DNA of 64,000 nt from contig OY970378.1 in the NCBI GenBank assembly GCA_963718875.1, positions 1,011,691 through 1,075,690 of the forward strand, read 5' to 3'. Made by a program: the position numbers and the translations under genes. This document shows, piece by piece, positions 4,745-64,000 of the stretch. Every line of letters starts with the position of its first letter. Position 1 is the stretch's first letter. This DNA is from Candidatus Parcubacteria bacterium (GTDB taxonomy: Bacteria > Patescibacteriota > Saccharimonadia > UBA4664 > JBIOIQ01). The notes under the pieces are model-generated. The model saw only the letters and a program-made list of their open reading frames with translations. It made no database searches and was not told where the DNA came from.

Positions 4745-4850
4745 TTGTCATTCCCTATCGGAAGCCAGCAAAATGATTTGTTTTATACAATCCGCGCTCC
4801 GGATAGGGAATCCAGGGCTTTATCTATTTTTATTTCTGGGTCCCTCTTCG
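4745..4850. repeat. modular palindromic intergenic repeat, gene-less copy (module 1 TGTCATTCCC-TATCGG..CCGGATA-GGGAATCCAGG, then module 2 TTTTTATTTCTGGGTCCC)
   Basis: same modules recur at 31372-31403/31700-31745, 32750-32936, 45167-45290 and 34364-34398. Confidence 0.6.
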
Positions 4851-11349: not shown

Positions 11350-11835
11350 TCATACAGTTGGACCCGCGTTTGGAGCGTCGTTTATGCCTAATTTTGCCTT
11401 GATCCGGTCCAAAACATTTCGTGGCGTCACTTCGGCTTTTACAATATATTCCGCACCTAGCGATTCGGCTTTTTTGCGCATTTTTGGATCGCTAGAGTTG
11501 GTAAGAATGAGTGCGGGAGAGGTTTTAAAATCGTAGCCATTTTGGACTAAGCTAGACAACACGTCCAAGCCCGAAATTTCCGGCATGCTTATATCTAGCA
11601 TCATAAGGTCGGGATGAATTTCGGTAATAGTCTGGAGTGCGTCCCGACCATTGGTTTTTATAACCACTTCAAAACCAGAGTTGGTCAACTTGGTTTGGTA
11701 CATACGAGAAATAAAAGGGTCGTCTTCGGCAATGAGGATGGTTTTGCCATTGTTTGGCAAAACAGTGTTTGCTGGTATTACGTCTTCTGGATCTGTGATG
11801 CGTGCCATGTAATACAGTTTAATGCCAAAAGACAA
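11350..11835 (-). CDS. response regulator, receiver domain only (CheY-like)
   Basis: KTILIAEDDPFISRMY...DLMMLDISMPEISGLDVL receiver motifs; no output domain. Confidence 0.65.
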   Translation of the reverse strand: MSFGIKLYYMARITDPEDVIPANTVLPNNGKTILIAEDDPFISRMYQTKLTNSGFEVVIKTNGRDALQTITEIHPDLMMLDISMPEISGLDVLSSLVQNGYDFKTSPALILTNSSDPKMRKKAESLGAEYIVKAEVTPRNVLDRIKAKLGINDAPNAGPTV

Positions 11836-16340: not shown

Positions 16341-16397
16341 GAAAGTCCGACTTTAATCTTTGTTGATTGCTGCAATCCGGATTTAAAGTCGGACTTT
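16341..16397. repeat. paired nested-palindrome repeat R1 (AAAGTCCGACTTTAATC ... GATTTAAAGTCGGACTTT)
   Basis: two AAGTCNGACTT palindromes about 39 bp apart in inverted orientation; family also at 20176, 21216 and 41359. Confidence 0.6.
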
Positions 16398-20175: not shown

Positions 20176-20232
20176 TGAAGTCGGACTTCAATCTTTGATA
20201 ATTTAAGCAATATTGATTTGAAGTCTGACTTC
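20176..20232. repeat. paired nested-palindrome repeat R2 (GAAGTCGGACTTCAATC ... GATTTGAAGTCTGACTTC)
   Basis: same family as R1, R3 and R4; inner segment TTAAGCAAT shared with R3. Confidence 0.6.
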
Positions 20233-21215: not shown

Positions 21216-21272
21216 AGAAGTCAGACTTTAATATTCGCCGCATTAAGCAATCCAGATTTGAAGTCTGACTTC
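21216..21272. repeat. paired nested-palindrome repeat R3 (AGAAGTCAGACTTTAAT ... GATTTGAAGTCTGACTTC)
   Basis: same family; lies between two minus-strand genes. Confidence 0.6.
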
Positions 21273-29255: not shown

Positions 29256-29308
29256 TGGAGGGCCGTCCGTGACTCCCCGGCTAGTGGGCCTGGGTAAACT
29301 TCTCGTCT
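29256..29308. repeat. 14-nt duplication of the tRNA-Lys 3' end (TGGAGGGCCGTCCG) fused to conserved motif copy 1 (TGACTCCCCGGCTAGTGGGCCTGGGTAAACTTCTCGTC)
   Basis: direct repeat of the tRNA 3' end about 90 bp from the tRNA; motif also at 37451-37487 and, diverged, at 63892-63927. Confidence 0.55.
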
Positions 29309-29358
29309 CGATGGACCCTTTCCAGTGAAAAAGCCCCACTTTCGTGAGGCGTTTTCAC

Positions 29359-31371: not shown

Positions 31372-31403
31372 CTGTCATCCCTGCGTAGGCGGGGATCCAG
31401 GCC
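31372..31403. repeat. repeat module 1 (TGTCATCCC-TGCGTAGGCG-GGGATCCAGG) abutting the 3' end of the GIY-YIG gene
   Basis: same module as at 4745, 32750, 45167 and 34364; near-inverted copy of the module at 31700-31745. Confidence 0.6.
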
Positions 31404-31404
31404 A

Positions 31405-31689
31405 TTAGAAATCCTCTGCTAAATCTTTCCAGTTCGGGTTACTCTCTTCAATTAATCGCAGCTTCCAAGCTCTCTTCCAATGCTTAATTTGTTTTTCGCG
31501 AAGCAATGCGGAGTTCACGTCATTGGTTTGTTCAAAATAAACCAGCATATGAACACTATTTTCCTTGGTGAACCCATCTATGAGATTGTTTTTATGCTGG
31601 TGCGCCCTAGTTTGCAGATTATTCGTCATGCCAACATAGAGAGTCCCATTGCGCTGACTAGCCATTATATAGACGTAATAAGTTTTCAT
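31405..31689 (-). CDS. GIY-YIG nuclease family protein (UPF0213/YhbQ-like, 94 aa)
   Basis: YVYIMASQRNGTLYVGMTNNLQTRAHQH...REKQIKHWKR GIY-YIG core; flanked on both sides by the repeat modules. Confidence 0.7.
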   Translation of the reverse strand: MKTYYVYIMASQRNGTLYVGMTNNLQTRAHQHKNNLIDGFTKENSVHMLVYFEQTNDVNSALLREKQIKHWKRAWKLRLIEESNPNWKDLAEDF

Positions 31690-31699
31690 TTGTTTATAT

Positions 31700-31745
31700 T
31701 ATACTTTTTTCTTTTCTGGGTCCCCGCCTTCGCAGGGACGACAAC
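31700..31745. repeat. repeat module 2 (TTTTTCTTTTCTGGGTCCCC-GCCTTCGCA-GGGAC) abutting the 5' end of the GIY-YIG gene
   Basis: reverse complement GTCCCTGCGAAGGCGGGGAC matches module 1 ATCCCTGCGTAGGCGGGGATC (roughly 18/20). Confidence 0.6.
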
Positions 31746-31747
31746 TA

Positions 31748-32392
31748 CTATTTAATCAAGTGCTTATTATGGCCAGATTCGATCAATAGCCGGTATGCAT
31801 TCTTAACCTCGTCGGGCACATCCATTTCAATTTGGTACCCTTTGGCCGGATATTCCATAATACGTTGCAAATCGCCAACCATAATGCTTACAACTAATTC
31901 CTGGCCGAGCTTTTCCGTGGGATAATTTTCAAAACTGATTGGGGGAGATGAAACAATAAAGTTTTTACTTGGAAAAAGCTTTTTGGCTGTGGCGAACACT
32001 CGTCGCTCCATGTAGGGCTTGGTGACTATAATTACAAGGTTGGCGGAAATATGGTTTTTACTTAACAAGTCCATCGAAAAAAGAATGTTTTCGCCGGTAT
32101 TGGTCGATTTCTTTTCCAGCAATACAGCATCGTCTGGGATGCCGGCTGCAGCCGCAACCTCTGCAAATATTTCAGCTTCGGTTTGGCCAAAACGGTCTTT
32201 AGTTAACGATCCCAAGCCTCCCGAAAAGATTATATGCGGCGCAAGTTCTCTCTTAAATAACTCAACACCGTATTCGGCCACCCGAATATCACTGCTACCG
32301 AGGACTATGATGCAATCGGCTTTTTCGAGGCTCTGGTTCATGTGATGATAGTCCCAGACGATTTTGGCGGCACTTTGGATTTCTGGATTCAT
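31748..32392 (-). CDS. YdcF/DUF218 family protein
   Basis: 214 aa; CIIVLGSSDIRVAEYGVELFKRELAPHIIFSGG is the DUF218 core. Confidence 0.6.
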   Translation of the reverse strand: MNPEIQSAAKIVWDYHHMNQSLEKADCIIVLGSSDIRVAEYGVELFKRELAPHIIFSGGLGSLTKDRFGQTEAEIFAEVAAAAGIPDDAVLLEKKSTNTGENILFSMDLLSKNHISANLVIIVTKPYMERRVFATAKKLFPSKNFIVSSPPISFENYPTEKLGQELVVSIMVGDLQRIMEYPAKGYQIEMDVPDEVKNAYRLLIESGHNKHLIK

Positions 32393-32730
32393 TTTGAACG
32401 TTCTCTAATCTTTTGATCATCGTCAGCCAGCATGTCCTCCCACGCTTGAGCCATATCAATGTCGAGCTTGGCGGCGATAAAAAGGGCTTCAGCTATGATA
32501 TCGGCCAGCTCATTGGCTAGCTGGGTTTTAAGTTCGGGCTCGGTCTTACCTTCGGCCCAGCGCTCACCTGTGAGCTGTAGCATGATTTTGGACAAGCTCC
32601 CAACTTGGTACGTCAAATCCTTGGCGGCCGATTCCCAGCTCCATGGCTTGGTGCCTTGGGCCACATAGCGGTCAAACGAAGCCACTACTTCGGCTTTGAG
32701 TTGGGCAATGGTCTTGGTTTGCTCGCTCAT
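32389..32730 (-). CDS. MazG-like nucleotide pyrophosphohydrolase (small single-domain type)
   Basis: 113 aa; ELADIIAEALFIAAKLDIDMAQAWEDML EExxE/D-type helix pattern. Confidence 0.5.
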   Translation of the reverse strand: MSEQTKTIAQLKAEVVASFDRYVAQGTKPWSWESAAKDLTYQVGSLSKIMLQLTGERWAEGKTEPELKTQLANELADIIAEALFIAAKLDIDMAQAWEDMLADDDQKIRERSK

Positions 32731-32749: not shown

Positions 32750-32936
32750 TGACATCCCCTATCGGCCGTTCGAGGCTCTGAGGAGCCCTCAGGCTCTCGA
32801 AGAGAAGCCAGTTATGGCTGAGTGCTTACGTAATCTGCGCTCCGGATAGGGGATCGAGGCAAAATTATCCAACTGTTTGTTTTGCTTATTTTTTTGTTTT
32901 TTTTATTTCTGGTTCCCCGCCTTCGCGGGGATAACA
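32750..32936. repeat. modular palindromic repeat, gene-less copy with long internal loop (TGACATCCCCTATCGG ... CCGGATAGGGGATCGAGG ... TTTTTTTATTTCTGGTTCCCCGCCTTCGCGGGGA)
   Basis: module 1 and module 2 both present; perfect mini-palindrome CCCCGCCTTCGCGGGG. Confidence 0.55.
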
Positions 32937-34363: not shown

Positions 34364-34398
34364 TGTCATCCCGAGCGATAATCGAGGGATCTAACTGG
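34364..34398. repeat. short module-1-like repeat (TGTCATCCCGAGCGATAATCGAGGGATCTAACTGG) in the glyA 5' leader
   Basis: shares TGTCATCCC...GGGATC with the other module 1 copies. Confidence 0.4.
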
Positions 34399-34549
34399 AT
34401 AGATGTTTCGACTTACGCTCAACATGACAAAGATAAGATGGGGCAAGCTACAACACGTCACAAAATCCTTATTTGTCCTGATTGTAACGGTTTACAGATC
34501 ATAGCGCTAGAGCTACGCCCACAGGAAAAGGACAGACCTTTTCCCAGTG

Positions 34550-37342: not shown

Positions 37343-37756
37343 TAGCGTCGTAGGGCACTACTTGGTGCACATGTTGGGGTGGACGCAACCCGTTTTATAA
37401 GCGCAGCCGTTCCGGTAATTTGAAATTGAAGTGGCTGGTGCGCCTGGAGGGACTCCCCGGCTCGGTGGCCGGGGTAAACTTCTCGTCCCTATGATTGTTA
37501 TCTGGTGCCCCTAATCGGACAGCTTTCAAACCCAGGTTTCCATGACGCGATCAGTATTCTGTATCATTCCACGCTGGAAGCCTAAGGCCCGGTACGACAT
37601 CGATTACACCTGCTTACACAAGCTACAAAAAGAAACCTCTTTGTCGTTATACAGCGGGCGGGCTCTGACGAACATTGGCCGAACGTCCAGAAATTGCTTG
37701 TTTGTTGCCGTTGCGTCCTGGAACTTCCGCCAGGCGGCGTGATCGAGCCTGGAAAA

Positions 37757-40050: not shown

Positions 40051-41349
40051 ATGCCTAAATCAATCAAAATTACCGGTGGAAGACCCTTGCGGGGCGAGGT
40101 TACTATTAGTGGAGCCAAAAACGCCGCTACCAAGATGATGATAGCGAGCCTGCTGACGGACGAGCCGGTAGTTTTGCACAATTGCCCGCAGATTGGGGAC
40201 GTTGAAATAACGGCCGAAATTTGCCGGGCGGTGGGTGCAAAAGTGACGTTTGACGGTTCAACGGTTAGCCTCCATACGCCAAAAATATTGCGGCCAGCAG
40301 TTAAGCGGTTAAGCCAAAATAATCGCATTTCGGTTTTAGCTATTTCGCCTTTACTGCACCGCGCCGGTAGCGCTGCTGTACCAAAAGTATCGGGTGACTT
40401 TATTGGACCGAGGCCGGTTAACTTTCATCTTGATGCTTTGCGAAAAATGGGAGCAAACATCGAAGAAACTAGTAAAGGCTACAAGGCAAAAGCTACAGGA
40501 CTCCATGGAACGTCCATCACCTTGCCGTATCCAAGTGTTGGTGCGACGGAAAACGTTATTTTTGCGGCTGTTCTTGCCCAAGGTAGGACGATTATCAAAA
40601 ATGCGGCTACTGAGCCGGAAATAACCGACATCATTAAGATGCTCCAACGCATGGGAGCGATCATTGAGTTTCGGGCCAACCGAACCATCATTATTGACGG
40701 CGTAGAAAGACTGGGCGGCGTAGAGTACAGCATAATCCCCGACCGCATTGAGGCCGCTTCATATGCCATTATGGCCGTAGCAACGGACGGGGACATTTTG
40801 GTTAAAGGTGCAAGGCAAGAAGACCTCATGACCCTCCTCAATACCATAAGACGAATTGGGGCAGACTATACAATTGAGGAAGGCGGAATTCGCTTTAAAA
40901 GGATAGGCCGGACATTAATTGGTATTGAGCTTGAAACCGATACCCATCCCGGATTTATGACTGACTGGCAACAGCCTATGGTGGTACTCTTAACCCAGGC
41001 TGAAGGGATTTCGGTAGTACATGAAACGGTTTATGAAGATCGTTTTGGGTATGTTGAAACACTAAAGGCGATGGGATCAAGCATTACGGTTTTTAGTAAA
41101 TGTTTGGGTGAACTACCTTGCCGATTTAACGGTGAGGGTTATAAACACAGTGCCGTCATTAAGGGTCCTACGCCTTTACGTTCAGCCAAAGTGGTGATTC
41201 CAGATATTCGGGCCGGGATGGCTCAAGTCATCGCAGCATTAATAGCCGAGGGCACTTCGGAGTTGACGGGGTTAGAGCACTTGTTGCGCGGATACGAGAA
41301 CTTGCTTGATAAATTGAAGTCCGTGGGCGCGGATTTTAGCGCCAAATAG
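40051..41349 (+). CDS. murA: UDP-N-acetylglucosamine 1-carboxyvinyltransferase
   Basis: 432 aa; EPT-fold MurA colinearity (KISGAKNAA-type N-terminus, catalytic Cys region). Confidence 0.85.
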   Translation: MPKSIKITGGRPLRGEVTISGAKNAATKMMIASLLTDEPVVLHNCPQIGDVEITAEICRAVGAKVTFDGSTVSLHTPKILRPAVKRLSQNNRISVLAISPLLHRAGSAAVPKVSGDFIGPRPVNFHLDALRKMGANIEETSKGYKAKATGLHGTSITLPYPSVGATENVIFAAVLAQGRTIIKNAATEPEITDIIKMLQRMGAIIEFRANRTIIIDGVERLGGVEYSIIPDRIEAASYAIMAVATDGDILVKGARQEDLMTLLNTIRRIGADYTIEEGGIRFKRIGRTLIGIELETDTHPGFMTDWQQPMVVLLTQAEGISVVHETVYEDRFGYVETLKAMGSSITVFSKCLGELPCRFNGEGYKHSAVIKGPTPLRSAKVVIPDIRAGMAQVIAALIAEGTSELTGLEHLLRGYENLLDKLKSVGADFSAK

Positions 41350-41358
41350 TCTAGATCA

Positions 41359-41423
41359 GAAGTCAGACTTCAAATCTAGACCACCTAAGCATGGTTATTA
41401 AAGTCTGACTTTTAAATCAAGCA
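41359..41423. repeat. paired nested-palindrome repeat R4 (GAAGTCAGACTTCAAATC ... AAAGTCTGACTTTTAAATC)
   Basis: same family; immediately downstream of murA. Confidence 0.55.
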
Positions 41424-43711: not shown

Positions 43712-43754
43712 TTAGTAATCATAACAATAAACACTCGCGGTCGGAAAGTCCTGG

Positions 43755-43788
43755 CAGCAGGACGAGGCGCGAGCGCCCCGCCCTGCTG
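43755..43788 (-). terminator. GC hairpin CAGCAGG...CCTGCTG downstream of the IMPCH-domain gene copy 1 (no U tract)
   Basis: near-identical hairpin recurs at 44467-44495 after copy 2. Confidence 0.3.
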
Positions 43789-44361: not shown

Positions 44362-44466
44362 ACGACGTGCTCCTTCTGGAGAAATGGCCGGAACAGTTTC
44401 CGACGGGGTAATTATGGGTTCAAGGATAAAACTAAGCAAGCGTAAGCGATTAATAAGTGTTGGGAA

Positions 44467-44495
44467 GCAGGACGAGGCGCGAACGCCCCGTCCTG
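44467..44495 (-). terminator. GC hairpin CAGGACG...CGTCCTG downstream of the IMPCH-like gene copy 2 (no U tract)
   Basis: paralogous to the hairpin at 43755-43788. Confidence 0.3.
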
Positions 44496-44507
44496 GTGGG
44501 CTGTCGA

Positions 44508-45166: not shown

Positions 45167-45290
45167 TGTCATTCCCTACCGGAAACCAAACTCCACCATT
45201 GCCTAGTTTGGTGCTCCGGATAGGGAATCCAGGCATTTTTAGCTTTCACATTTTTATTTTCTTTTCTGGGCCCCCTATCCGGAGCGCAGA
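45167..45290. repeat. modular palindromic repeat, gene-less copy (TGTCATTCCCTACCGG..CCGGATAGGGAATCCAGG ... TTTTCTTTTCTGGGCCCCCTATCCGG)
   Basis: module 1 and module 2 both present, with an inner hairpin ACCAAACT..AGTTTGGT. Confidence 0.55.
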
Positions 45291-45343
45291 TGAGCTTTTA
45301 ACAGTTTGTACCGGCTTCCGATAGGGGGTGACAAAAAAGACAC

Positions 45344-45447
45344 AAGGAGAGACGCGCATGACAGGGCGCTTTAAGTTGCACGGGTGCCTCCCGTGTCGAT
45401 AGTAATTGTTACTCAAAAGCCGATTACACGGGAGGCACCCGTGCAAC
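45344..45447 (+). promoter_or_regulatory. purL leader: SD plus 14-codon mini-ORF (45358-45402) running into a perfect 22-bp inverted repeat (45375-45396 / 45426-45447)
   Basis: AAGGAGA-8nt-ATG encodes MTGRFKLHGCLPCR; left arm GTTGCACGGGTGCCTCCCGTGT, 29-nt loop, right arm exact reverse complement; about 60 nt upstream of purL. Confidence 0.35.
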
Positions 45448-45507
45448 TATGGCATGACATGGATGGCTTGATCGCTTATACTGCCTTTATATAAAGGTAG
45501 TCAGCGG

Positions 45508-48477
45508 TTGGCAGACGTGCACAAAATTGAAGTCATACCCAAAACCAGTGACTCGCGAGCCGAGCAACTGCTGCGACTGTGGGGCGAGCAAACCAAGGGT
45601 AAAGTTAAAACTGTATGGCTGCGCGACGCCTACACTATTACAAAACCACTCGACTCCAAACAGGCCGGAAATGTGGCGGCAATGCTAACCAACCCGGTAA
45701 CCCAAACCGTAGAAGTCCACCCTGACACCCGTCATGGAGTGCCTCAAGAAGCTTTTGATTGGTCAATTGAAATCGGTTATTTGCCTGGTGTAACAGATAA
45801 CGTTGGCCATACCGCCAGGGTTAGTATCGAAGATTTGCTGGGTACCCCTTTTGTAGATCAGGAGGCGGTTTACTCATCGCAGATTATTTTAATTGAAGCC
45901 GAGCTTGACCGGGCTGAGGTAGATGATTTGGCAGCGGGGCTGGCGAACCGTTTGATTCAACGTATCGTTGTGCAATCGCATAGTGCTTGGGAAGATGGCG
46001 AAGCTGCTAAAATTGTGGTGCCTCAGGTTAAACTAAAACCGCCTGCCCCACCCACATTGATTGACCTAGATGTGAGTGATGATGAACTGGTAGCAATCGG
46101 CCAAAAGGGCATCGCAAATGAAAACGGCAATCGCCGCGGCCCGCTGGCTCTAGACCTAGCTAGCATGAAAGCAATTCAAGCCTACTTTGCCAAGCTGGAG
46201 CGCAAGCCGACAGACATTGAACTTGAATCCATAGCCCAGACTTGGTCTGAACATTGTAAACACACTATTTTTGCTGGACCATTGGATGAAATTGAAGACG
46301 GAATTTACAAAACCTACATCAAAGCTGCCACCCAAAAGGTACGAGCCGACAAAGGCAGTCGGGATCTGTGCGTTTCAGTGTTTACCGATAACGCCGGAGC
46401 CATTCGGTTCGATGATGACTATCTTGTAACACATAAAGTTGAAACCCATAATAGCCCGTCGGCACTGGATCCGTTTGGTGGCGCAATTACCGGTATTGTA
46501 GGCGTTAACCGCGACACCATGGGGTTTGGGATGGGCGCAAAACCAGTCATAAACGTCTATGGTTTTTGCTTGGCCGATCCAGAAGACAAAGCACTGCTCT
46601 ATCGCGACCCAAAGCTAACATCGGCCATGCTTCCGCCGGCCCGGATTATGAGCGGGGTGATTGCAGGAGTAAATGCCGGTGGTAACCAATCGGGTATCCC
46701 CTCCCCTCAGGGCTTCATGTTTTTCGATGAGCGCTATAAGGGAAAGCCACTGGTATTCGCAGGTACGCTGGGAATTATTCCGAACAAAGTCGGGGGCAAA
46801 GATTCCCACGAAAAGCAGGCTCGTCCAGGAGATTTAATCGTAGTCATGGGCGGACGCGTAGGCCTAGATGGCATTCATGGTGCCACATTTGCTTCGGTCG
46901 CATTAGATGAAGATAGTCCAGCAGCAGCAGTCCAAATAGGCGACCCGATTACCCAAAAGAAAATGAGCGATGCTTTGATCAAAGAGGCCCGCGATGCAGG
47001 ATTGTATTCGAGTATTACCGATAACGGCGCCGGTGGATTGTCCTGTAGTGTGGCCGAAATGGCCAAAGAAGCCGGTGGTTTTGAGGTGCAAATTGAAAAA
47101 GTGCCGTTAAAGTATCCTAACCTGGCCCCTTGGCAAACCTGGGTGTCTGAGAGCCAGGAGCGAATGACCCTGTCGGTGCCGGCAGAGCATTGGGAAGCGC
47201 TCAACGACCTGATGAAGAGTCGTGGTGTAGAGGCGATGGTGATCGGAACCTTTACTGATACTGGACGCGGGTTGGTGACGGACGACGGGGAAACGGTACT
47301 CGACATTGACTTGGAGTTTTTACATGATGGGCTGCCAAAAACGGCGCGTTCAAGCAATAATTACCACCCGCCGAAGGTAGCTGAATCAACATTGCCTGAG
47401 CCAAGCGATTGGAACCAGGCAGTACTTAAATTATTGGGGTCGTTGAATTTGGCTAGCTTTGAGTTTTTATCAAGCCAATACGATCACGAGGTTCAGGCCG
47501 GTTCGGTGTTAAAACCGCTCCAGGGGCGCGGAAGGGTTAACTCGGAGGCAAGTGTAACGCGTCCGGTTTTGTCCTCGCCCAAGGGGGTGGTTTTGTCGCA
47601 AGGCCTTTACCCGTCTTACAGCGAAATGGATCCTTACGCAATGGCGGCAGCTAGCATCGACACGGCCATTCGTAACGTTGTGGCAGCTGGTGCGGATCCT
47701 GACACAATTGCACTTCTGGATAATTTTTGCTGGTGCAGCTCTAATGATCCTGAACGTTTGGGCCAACTCAAACTAGCAGCCCAAGCCTGCTATGACTATG
47801 CCGTAGCATTTGGAGCGCCGTTTATATCTGGTAAAGACAGTATGTTTAACGACTTTAAAGGCTTTGACGCGAACGGTAACCCAATTCAAATTTCCATACC
47901 CCCTACTTTGCTTGTTTCCAGTATGGGGTTGATTAATGATGCTAGTAAGGCAGTATCGATTGATCTTAAAAAAGCCGGTGATGTGATTTACTTGCTCGGA
48001 GAAACGGCCGACGAGTTAGGGGGATCAGAATACTCGCGAGTTGCTGAGTTGTCAGGCGGCCAGGTACCGCAGGTAGACGCTAAGCGTAATTTACCCATTT
48101 ACCAGTCGTTGGCTCGAGCAATTAATAGAGATTTGGTGGCTTCAAGTATAAGCGTGACCCGCGGTGGCCTGGCAATGGCAGTGGTGAAGACGGCCCTTGC
48201 AGGGCGACTGGGAGTGAACGTTTCGATTGATGAGATACCTGGAGCTGCCTCTGGTTCTGTAGCTAGATTGTTTAGCGAGTCGCAAGGCCGGATAGTGGTT
48301 TCAGTGGCTCCGGAAAACCAAGCCGCTTTTGAGAAAGAAATGGGGTCGACTATGGGTCAGATTGGGTCTGTCACGGATGATGGTGCGATTACGATCACAG
48401 CGAATGGATCAGTTTTAGTGAAAGTGCCAGTCGACGATGCGCTCGAAACATATCGAAAAAGGTTTAAAGACGTATGA
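45508..48477 (+). CDS. purL: phosphoribosylformylglycinamidine synthase subunit PurL with an N-terminal PurS-like extension (989 aa)
   Basis: core small-PurL motifs (WSEHCKH, AIR-synthase-like domains); about 200 extra N-terminal residues with a PurS-like ...AAGLANRLIQRIVV tail; TTG or GTG start. Confidence 0.8.
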   Translation: MADVHKIEVIPKTSDSRAEQLLRLWGEQTKGKVKTVWLRDAYTITKPLDSKQAGNVAAMLTNPVTQTVEVHPDTRHGVPQEAFDWSIEIGYLPGVTDNVGHTARVSIEDLLGTPFVDQEAVYSSQIILIEAELDRAEVDDLAAGLANRLIQRIVVQSHSAWEDGEAAKIVVPQVKLKPPAPPTLIDLDVSDDELVAIGQKGIANENGNRRGPLALDLASMKAIQAYFAKLERKPTDIELESIAQTWSEHCKHTIFAGPLDEIEDGIYKTYIKAATQKVRADKGSRDLCVSVFTDNAGAIRFDDDYLVTHKVETHNSPSALDPFGGAITGIVGVNRDTMGFGMGAKPVINVYGFCLADPEDKALLYRDPKLTSAMLPPARIMSGVIAGVNAGGNQSGIPSPQGFMFFDERYKGKPLVFAGTLGIIPNKVGGKDSHEKQARPGDLIVVMGGRVGLDGIHGATFASVALDEDSPAAAVQIGDPITQKKMSDALIKEARDAGLYSSITDNGAGGLSCSVAEMAKEAGGFEVQIEKVPLKYPNLAPWQTWVSESQERMTLSVPAEHWEALNDLMKSRGVEAMVIGTFTDTGRGLVTDDGETVLDIDLEFLHDGLPKTARSSNNYHPPKVAESTLPEPSDWNQAVLKLLGSLNLASFEFLSSQYDHEVQAGSVLKPLQGRGRVNSEASVTRPVLSSPKGVVLSQGLYPSYSEMDPYAMAAASIDTAIRNVVAAGADPDTIALLDNFCWCSSNDPERLGQLKLAAQACYDYAVAFGAPFISGKDSMFNDFKGFDANGNPIQISIPPTLLVSSMGLINDASKAVSIDLKKAGDVIYLLGETADELGGSEYSRVAELSGGQVPQVDAKRNLPIYQSLARAINRDLVASSISVTRGGLAMAVVKTALAGRLGVNVSIDEIPGAASGSVARLFSESQGRIVVSVAPENQAAFEKEMGSTMGQIGSVTDDGAITITANGSVLVKVPVDDALETYRKRFKDV

Positions 48478-52669: not shown

Positions 52670-52778
52670 TGTCATTTCAACTTACTTCTGTCATCCTCCG
52701 GCTTGACAGGAGGATCTATCTGGATACGTGCTTCGGCCCTTCGACAAGCTCAGGGAGTAAATTGGAGGGTAAAGTATC

Positions 52779-63118: not shown

Positions 63119-63176
63119 CCATCCTCTTCAAAACAAAAACCCCAGCTTACGCTGAGGTTTTTGTTTTGGGGCCGTG
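63119..63176. repeat. 58-bp direct repeat copy 1 containing a terminator-like hairpin (CCATCCTCTTCAAAACAAAAACCCCAGCTTACGCTGAGGTTTTTGTTTTGGGGCCGT)
   Basis: 55/58 identical to 63930-63987; hairpin CAAAAACC-CAGC/GCTG-AGGTTTTTG with T-runs on both sides. Confidence 0.6.
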
Positions 63177-63223
63177 TGGTAGGTGGTGTCAGAACAATTT
63201 TTGTTGATTGGATGAGCTAATCT

Positions 63224-63929: not shown

Positions 63930-63987
63930 CCATCCTCTTCAAAACAAAAACCCCAGCTTTCGCTGAGGATTTTGTTTTGGGGCCGTA
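63930..63987. repeat. 58-bp direct repeat copy 2
   Basis: see 63119-63176. Confidence 0.6.
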
Positions 63988-64000
63988 CGGTGAGTAGGGT

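Follow-up and report, generated by a model that had tools for sequence, protein, structure and literature searches.

A predicted Ssn-family nuclease gene between putative SRM hairpins, with dispersed gene-less hairpin pairs, in a 64-kb stretch of a Saccharibacteria-like genome

Why should the gene for a 94-aa GIY-YIG nuclease lie precisely between two hairpin-forming modules that recur nearby in pairs enclosing no gene? The question is raised by 64,000 nt of contig OY970378.1 (positions 1,011,691 to 1,075,690 of the forward strand; assembly GCA_963718875.1, Candidatus Parcubacteria bacterium), referred to below as the window. From homology, predicted folds and the association found at related loci, we consider it very probable that the gene encodes a site-specific single-stranded DNA (ssDNA) endonuclease of the Ssn family (cd10448), and that the flanking modules are its cognate SRM hairpins. 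This is not a new kind of system, since Ssn/SRM was published in 2025, with the insertion-sequence idea included (PMC11893778). A preliminary description of the window had held that a REP-like family serviced by a GIY-YIG nuclease would be unusual.

The ssn-like gene and its hairpin ends

Ssn nucleases and NTS/SRM hairpins were described by Chenal et al. (Nat Commun 2025; PMC11893778). The Neisseria repeat NTS, CGTCATTCCCGCGMAVGCGGGAATCYRG, is a superset of dRS3 and is spatially tied, across bacteria, to ssnA, a single-domain GIY-YIG gene of 94 aa (CDD cd10448) whose prototype is the 94-aa SsnA of N. meningitidis (PMC11893778). Purified SsnA bound NTS only as ssDNA and cut it a few nt upstream, was inactive on the reverse strand, on duplex DNA and on RNA, and lost cleavage in the Y6A, Y17A and E64A variants; the most critical NTS bases were those immediately 5' of the palindrome and the C right after it (PMC11893778). 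In the same study, an SRM was found near 71% of ssn homologues, and on both sides in 42%, direct binding of the hairpin was demonstrated experimentally in four species, and SsnA was reported to reduce transformation of N. meningitidis by NTS-bearing DNA (PMC11893778).

The window protein (Table 1) matches Pfam PF01541 (GIY-YIG) at residues 4-77 with E=2e-15, and this was the sole family found in the Pfam search of its 94 aa; no other domain was matched, and in particular no Y1/HUH transposase domain. Homology to SsnA was judged by proxy, via a homologue from an uncultured Neisseria sp. (95 aa; L067:7230-7514) to which the window protein is 61% identical over its full length (E=1e-42, the threshold of the original paper being E < 1e-10). 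This Neisseria homologue has an NTS-like hairpin of its own, 3' of its stop codon. Residues Y7, Y18, R28, H32, E65 and N84 are invariant across 28 aligned homologues, the window protein among them, and Y7, Y18 and E65 correspond to SsnA Y6, Y17 and E64 with an offset of +1. The family is large: 2492 homologues of the window protein were found, many at 60-70% identity in widely differing phyla, and the genome scan gave 486 relatives, including the uncultured Neisseria sp. contig. The closest relative, P0002, is 86% identical, and the metagenome scan yielded none close, its top match being 73% identical. The PDB sequence search returned no solved relative at E <= 0.01, and NCBIfam holds no specific model for the protein, the best matches lying far under their cut-offs. 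Note that the public gene call for ssn has 86 aa and begins at Met9, so that the GIY tyrosine Y7 is dropped (region 31665-31689). Met1 is the likelier start because a start at Met9 removes Y7, which is invariant in the homologues, and the exact look-up of the 94-aa protein found no record because the public call has 86 aa. The public call for the adjoining murB gene is also shorter than the open reading frame (ORF) read here (337 vs 351 aa).

Bracketing of the GIY-YIG ORF by two modules, as claimed in the preliminary description, was confirmed, with the limits given in Table 1. Each module has 28 nt in the layout TGTCAT-stem-loop-stem-ATCCAG, and the two are mutually inverted and ~25/28 identical by eye, which bears out the earlier view of them as near reverse complements resembling terminal inverted repeats. 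Folded as ssDNA, both give an 8-bp stem with a 4-nt loop, at a free energy (dG) of -7.8 kcal/mol for the 3' hairpin and -7.3 kcal/mol for the 5' hairpin. The TGTCAT ends of both hairpins face away from the gene, and their stem has a T.G pair that is formed on the TGTCAT strand only. Together, gene and hairpins make up a compact cassette of ~370 bp, in which the hairpins act like terminal inverted repeats. The A-rich leader AAAAGAAAAAAGTATAATATAAACAA, which precedes the start codon, is common to the window cassette, the cassette of a relative (L001) and the gene-less pairs, as judged by alignment. The core CCCTGCGWAGGCGGGG occurs 3 times in the window vs 0.08 expected, and the tail CCAGAAAWRAAAA 5 times vs 0.74 expected. 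In addition, both hairpins fit the consensus TGTCATTCCnGCGAAnGCGGGAATCCAG, which was built from 56 SRMs of ssn flanks and conserves the non-palindromic flanks GTCAT and C. The hairpins matched no Rfam family. A role of the hairpins as terminators or promoters was considered and rejected, as there was no consensus match and no T-run terminator signature.

Structure-only hairpin scans of the whole window (GTC + stem + C) were noisy, giving 47 matches vs 33 in shuffles, and at stem >= 6 only 3 of the 36 matches were real; the scan was then restricted to gene flanks with matched controls. Specifically, 161 loci with ssn homologues were surveyed for the GTC-hairpin-C motif, and 150 genes had full 100-nt flanks. 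The motif was present upstream in the expected sense orientation at 96/150 genes (64%) and downstream in the expected antisense orientation at 78/150 (52%). At least one expected position was occupied in 115 genes (77%) and both in 59 (39%); random control windows from the surveyed loci had the motif in 12/454 cases (2.6%). Motifs in the wrong orientation were seen among the 150 genes as well (16 upstream antisense, 29 downstream sense). The prevailing form has an 8-bp stem and a 4-nt loop, as in the window, and the hairpins end a median 14.5 nt ahead of the ATG and start a median 7 nt past the stop codon. Stem sequence varies between genomes with pairing kept, compensatory changes being found in 7 of the 8 stem pairs; note that the surveyed motifs were preselected for pairing, and covariation alone, not the percentage paired, is evidential. 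Among motifs with a single mismatch, G.T on the GTCAT strand was found 21 times and A.C 9 times, an excess that fits function on the GTCAT strand.

Gene-less hairpin pairs and the proposed action

Besides the cassette, the window contains four intergenic sites with gene-less convergent hairpin pairs and one solo copy (Table 1). Every hairpin copy is intergenic, and the arrangement is convergent in 5/5 pairs, the cassette included, with the TGTCAT ends outward. Strict convergence is not a general rule, because adjacent motif pairs across the 161 loci were convergent in 113 cases, divergent in 86 and tandem in 90 as counted with a noisy detector. The gene-less pairs that the preliminary description had listed at three sites are present, with two corrections: the second module of the site at 4745-4850 is only a 3' remnant, with CTGGGTCCC at 4836-4844 and an A-rich tail reaching back to 4827, and the pair starting at 45167 ends at 45333, not 45290. 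The copy at 34364 had been taken for a lone first module, and it proved to have a degenerate minus-strand partner at 34395-34429. All copies listed earlier are real, but the solo copy at 52689-52716 had been overlooked. This solo copy (52689-52719) is the sole one in the window that matches the published pattern exactly, the pattern's other match being a probable chance site.

Two kinds of hairpin are distinguished in the window. The long variant, comprising three plus-strand copies and the minus-strand copy of site E, has the stem CCCTATCGGAAGCC...GCGCTCCGGATAGGG and apical inserts of ~24-70 nt that are different in each copy (4767-4793, 32768-32836, 45188-45211 and 45289-45313). The same long-type stem occurs without an insert in the relative L001. 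The long-type hairpin of site C (32750-32858) folds with dG -27.2 and z = -3.9. After the hairpin, 5'-side copies always run into CCAGAAAWRAAAA and partner copies into CCAGGC, and with these distinct continuations the pairs therefore keep a 5'/3' polarity. In the alignment, gene-less pairs E, C and A still have the A-rich leader of ssn as far as the site of the start codon, along with the GCC-TGGAT junction found after the ssn stop codon. Because leader and 3' junction remain, these pairs look ORF-deleted, and they are most simply regarded as probable ORF-deleted or degenerate copies of the cassette.

Table 1. Coordinates of the ssn-like gene and of the SRM hairpin copies in the window
Feature	Position	Strand	Sequence or description	Basis
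ssn-like gene	31405..31689	minus	94 aa, single-domain GIY-YIG nuclease (predicted)	Pfam and homology
3' SRM hairpin	31373..31400	plus (opposite gene)	TGTCATCCCTGCGTAGGCGGGGATCCAG; 4 nt past stop codon	sequence, fold, core enrichment
A-rich leader	31690..31715	minus	AAAAGAAAAAAGTATAATATAAACAA; between 5' SRM and ATG	alignment; tail enrichment
5' SRM hairpin	31716..31743	minus (gene strand)	TGTCGTCCCTGCGAAGGCGGGGACCCAG; 26 nt ahead of ATG	sequence, fold, consensus fit
Site A, long-type SRM	4746..4815	plus		sequence, fold
Site A partner, 5'-type SRM remnant	4827..4844	minus	3' arm and A-rich tail only, GGGACCCAGAAATAAAAA	
Site C, long-type SRM	32750..32858	plus	~70-nt insert, itself strongly hairpin-forming; outer end decayed to TGACAT	
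Site C partner, short 5'-type SRM	32909..32936	minus	TGTTATCCCCGCGAAGGCGGGGAACCAG	
Site D, degenerate SRM	34364..34391	plus	TGTCATCCCGAGCGATAATCGAGGGATC; weak fold	
Site D partner, degenerate SRM	34395..34429	minus	TGTCATGTTGAGCGTAAGTCGAAACATCTATCCAG; 3 nt from plus-strand copy	
Site E, long-type SRM	45167..45232	plus	fold dG -19.1, z = -6.5	
Site E partner, long-type SRM of 5' type	45266..45333	minus	followed by ssn-like leader	
Solo SRM	52689..52716	plus	TGTCATCCTCCGGCTTGACAGGAGGATC; between two same-strand ORFs	

The window shares with the published Ssn/SRM system a 94-aa protein with a single GIY-YIG domain and conserved Tyr/Tyr/Glu, hairpins of ~28 nt on both sides with GTCAT conserved on the 5' side and a C following the stem, and further copies dispersed between genes. 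It differs in its host, a Saccharibacteria-like genome of ~1.19 Mb, and in its stem, ATCCCTGC/GCGGGGAT, which has a G.T pair and is one position off the published pattern. The window also has a long-type variant with variable apical inserts, and its dispersed gene-less pairs are all convergent and keep the ssn leader. The Neisseria dRS3 repeats and NIMEs are similar in having a palindromic core of the ATTCCC-N8-GGGAAT type clustered between genes, whereas the window core is ATCCC-N10-GGGAT, with other loop and stem bases, and the window copies, unlike NIMEs, have no RS segments between them. dRS3 is also a phage integration target.

From homology to the characterised enzymes, the window system might act as follows. 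Where replication, repair, recombination or DNA uptake leaves DNA single-stranded, the 5'-TGTCAT...-3' strand would fold into the 8-bp hairpin. The Ssn-like protein would then bind this hairpin, including the conserved GTCAT on its 5' side and the C after the stem, and would cut the motif strand a few nt 5' of the motif; the complementary strand, duplex DNA and RNA would not be substrates. The dispersed gene-less pairs would provide further cleavage sites in the genome. Possible roles are the control of ssDNA that enters the cell or recombines, or the maintenance and spread of the cassette.

Four points weigh against assigning the gene and its modules to the Ssn/SRM system. We infer both the enzymatic activity and the biological role of the window protein, the activity from homology. 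Both flanking hairpins fail the published degenerate SRM pattern, HGTCWYN(0-2)YYVSBRHN(0-5)WNVSBRGN(0-2)RNCYNB, at one position (T in CCCTGCG, where S is required). When the stem sequence was altered with the hairpin kept, the Neisseria enzyme was inactive (PMC11893778); because that enzyme needs its own stem sequence, specificity of the window enzyme for the local stem is an assumption. The long-type hairpins, with their inserts, lie outside the range tested for Ssn.

Mobility of the cassette

By its MurB homologues the genome falls near Candidatus Saccharibacteria, and the source contig has ~1.19 Mb. In the window (MurB identity 100%) the ssn cassette adjoins murB, and its presence at this position was compared among relatives of the lineage. 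The ssn gene adjoins murB also on the P0002/P0123 contig (MurB 77%), as judged from the gene alone. The cassette adjoins murB in L001 as well (MurB 61%), where ssn is 80% identical and hairpins flank it on both sides, the downstream one being long-type. The cassette is absent from L164 (MurB 69%) and L163 (MurB 67%), where an EamA gene abuts murB, and from L162 (MurB 67%), where a 331-nt gap holds a lone TTGTCATCCC half-site and tblastn detected no ssn remnant. Presence beside murB is thus patchy, which calls for either a number of losses or more than one gain at the same place. The comparison of orthologous loci envisaged in the preliminary description accordingly found the cassette present in some relatives and absent from others, but no target-site duplications, none of which was seen by inspection at any of the five pair sites of the window. 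L001 has no hairpin pairs at the positions orthologous to the gene-less sites C and D, so that turnover is quicker for the pairs than for the occupied cassette; site C was scored by length difference and hairpin absence, the intergenic DNA being too diverged for base alignment. In L001, the orthologue (2506-2845) of the 113-aa gene of the window (32389-32730) has an in-frame stop and is likely a pseudogene. The DUF218 gene is also absent from L001, and the lineage varies in what lies downstream of murB, with EamA there in L163/L164.

Comparison with other genomes makes it clear that the cassette evolves as a discrete module, which has undergone duplication, inversion and loss and occurs in new contexts. 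Between L087 and L097, L022 and L048, and L034 and L060, cassettes are 80-94% nucleotide-identical, with flanks in which even tblastx detected no similarity. Cassette identity starts at (T)TGTCA and stops at TGACA(A) in the comparisons L087/L097, L012/L127, L022/L048/L152 and L034/L060. A Chloroflexota metagenome-assembled genome (MAG; L044) has a tandem duplicate of the cassette in which the shared part is bounded by the hairpins, and between an Ignavibacteriaceae MAG (L012) and a metagenome contig (L127) the neighbour gene is 88% identical with the cassette oriented oppositely. L138 has, at 11514-11550, a single chimeric hairpin, TGTCATTCCCGACTGAATCTTGAGATCGGGAATGACA (TGTCAT...ATGACA), where L139 has hairpin-ssn-hairpin. 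The L138 cassette lies ~280 bp from the chimeric hairpin, and a duplicated part of the adjacent segment flanks it. The palindromic stem is a direct repeat on one strand. The chimeric hairpin is a candidate excision footprint, left by recombination within the stems, or a candidate insertion target; either would explain it.

Five ssn cassettes, 94-97% identical, are present in MAG CBDBHR01 (L021, L029, L031, L035 and L043), and the window has a single ssn copy in its 64 kb. In CBDBHR01 the repeat unit exceeds the hairpins and has an outer inverted repeat, GTTACGTG-N5-TTTTTGCA ... TGCAAAAA-N5-CACGTAAC, with tandem modules of ~95 nt upstream. In the L021 copy, upstream homology breaks exactly at the 5' end of the hairpin, and the upstream segment lies ~0.9 kb further off. 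The ssn gene of this MAG may be a passenger of the larger repeat unit. As a separate observation, the cassettes of L111 and L107/L115 are 96% identical, and in L107 an additional ~2.8 kb, with repeated modules of ~180 nt, separates the cassette from the common neighbour gene.

Do these cassettes move by themselves? We regard it as possible, though rather doubtful, that SRM-ssn-SRM is a minimal self-mobilising cassette of ~0.4 kb, whose nuclease would cut its own hairpin ends on opposite strands and so lead to excision, inversion or copying, the gene-less pairs being non-autonomous. Put in the terms of transposition, and just as tentatively, the cassette would be an autonomous transposable element with Ssn as the mobilising enzyme, and the gene-less pairs would resemble miniature inverted-repeat transposable elements (MITEs) mobilised in trans, which extends the Ssn/SRM assignment and does not replace it. 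Such mobility would agree with homology bounded exactly by TTGTCA and TGACAA between unrelated contexts, with the tandem duplicate, the five-copy MAG, the inversion and the chimeric hairpin, and with the retention of the ssn leader and 3' junction in the gene-less pairs. The pairs missing from L001 and the patchy occurrence of the cassette beside murB among relatives point the same way. The analogy itself was raised in the discussion of the original paper, where NTS-ssnA-NTS was likened to an insertion sequence (IS), to IS200/IS605 and to REP/RAYT, and mobility was not tested there (PMC11893778). Beyond that paper, nothing on Ssn mobility was found in the literature.

Several observations speak against self-mobilisation. 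No target-site duplications are visible at the window copies. The inverted ends imply cuts on opposite strands, unlike IS200/IS605, and no strand-transfer or ligation activity is known for the 94-aa nuclease; to our knowledge, the sole activity demonstrated for the Ssn family is ssDNA cleavage, with no joining activity. Adjacency to murB in three related genomes fits vertical inheritance, the repeat of the five-copy MAG extends past the cassette and carries an outer inverted repeat of its own, and ordinary recombination at hairpins or palindromes could yield the rearrangements. Convergent pairs, moreover, were just mildly in excess across the 161 loci. The mobile element with MITE-like derivatives proposed in the preliminary description therefore stands as to its cassette-like ends and ORF-deleted-looking pairs, but not as to transposition, against which the lack of target-site duplications and the murB synteny count.

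Known mobile systems resemble the cassette in part. Like REP/RAYT (TnpA-REP) and IS200/IS605, it has a small nuclease gene flanked by hairpins that its product is predicted to recognise as ssDNA, with repeats dispersed in the genome, and domestication has been suggested as a scenario. However, those elements use HUH/Y1 transposases with covalent intermediates, whereas the window enzyme is of the GIY-YIG type, and their hairpins lie on one strand, whereas the window hairpins are inverted, as in most homologous loci. With IS elements and their MITEs the window shares terminal inverted repeats, a coding copy accompanied by short gene-less copies, and presence that varies between relatives; the window sites differ in lacking a target-site duplication and a DDE or other recognised transposase, and in having ends that are themselves hairpins.

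GIY-YIG enzymes include classic homing endonucleases, and the gene-less pairs could on that ground be seen as ancestral targets into which the ssn ORF enters by cleavage and repair from an occupied copy. The leader and the 3' junction, common to occupied and empty sites, would offer possible homology arms, and the length of the ORF corresponds almost exactly to the interval between the hairpins. Enzymes of the I-TevI type are also similar in their catalytic fold and in that their gene acts as a discrete insertable module. We nevertheless consider homing improbable. It requires duplex cleavage, which characterised Ssn enzymes do not perform, these relatives cutting ssDNA only. The window protein, unlike I-TevI-type enzymes, lies outside an intron or phage and, like its family, lacks the domain with which homing enzymes bind DNA; its score with the group I intron endonuclease model TIGR01453 was 20.6 bits against a cut-off of 56, over residues 6-36 only. 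Furthermore, the ORF is present in just one pair out of five within the 64 kb, and stems that vary by site (short or long) make for poor homology for copying.

Small genomes often contain palindromic intergenic repeats, the copies here are all intergenic and hairpin-forming, and the window has at least one other such repeat family (D1), so that the hairpins might be generic intergenic elements of the repetitive extragenic palindromic (REP) kind, stabilising or terminating transcripts and lying near the GIY-YIG gene by coincidence. This is effectively refuted by the oriented link to ssn homologues across many phyla (64% and 52% vs 2.6% in controls), by the conserved GTCAT and C flanks with no T-run terminator signature, and by direct binding in four species (PMC11893778).

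With the Ssn/SRM assignment preferred, the window adds a new Ssn member in a reduced Saccharibacteria-like genome, in a tidy set of one occupied cassette and four gene-less convergent pairs within 64 kb. The compared loci supply new hints on cassette movement, namely hairpin-bounded homology, duplication in tandem, inversion in place and a site collapsed to a single hairpin. Should the cassettes move, they would represent a new type of mobile element with the 94-aa nuclease at its core, unlike the HUH, DDE, serine and tyrosine systems. If they do not, the hairpins would be ssDNA cleavage sites maintained by the host, relevant to DNA uptake or recombination in reduced genomes. New pairs of hairpin and enzyme are also of practical interest as ssDNA-cutting tools.

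Other repeats in the window

A second intergenic palindromic family, GAAGTCAGACTTCAAATC...GATTTGAAGTCTGACTTC (D1, I3, I20), was found at 16342-16397, 20177-20232, 21217-21272 and 41336-41380, and no link between it and the SRM hairpins was seen. A 58-nt repeat occurs at 29256-29313 and 37436-37493 with 78% identity and the core GACTCCCCGGCT.G..GGCC.GGGTAAACTTCTCGTC; one copy lies just past tRNA-Lys, and the start of the second resembles a reverse-complemented tRNA 3' end (TGGTGCGCC). Nothing in Rfam matched the 58-nt repeat at E <= 1, and it was not called as a tRNA. Right after the gene-less pair E, and 60 nt ahead of a 989-aa ORF (45508-48477), an inverted repeat with perfectly matching 23-nt arms and a 29-nt spacer, AGTTGCACGGGTGCCTCCCGTGT ... 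ACACGGGAGGCACCCGTGCAACT, occupies 45374-45448. Two further repeats have two copies each, both at 89% identity: one at 63119-63189 and 63930-64000, with an A/T-flanked hairpin, CAAAACAAAAACCCCAGC...GCTGAGGTTTTTGTTTTG, and a GC-rich 36-mer at 43753-43788 and 44463-44498.

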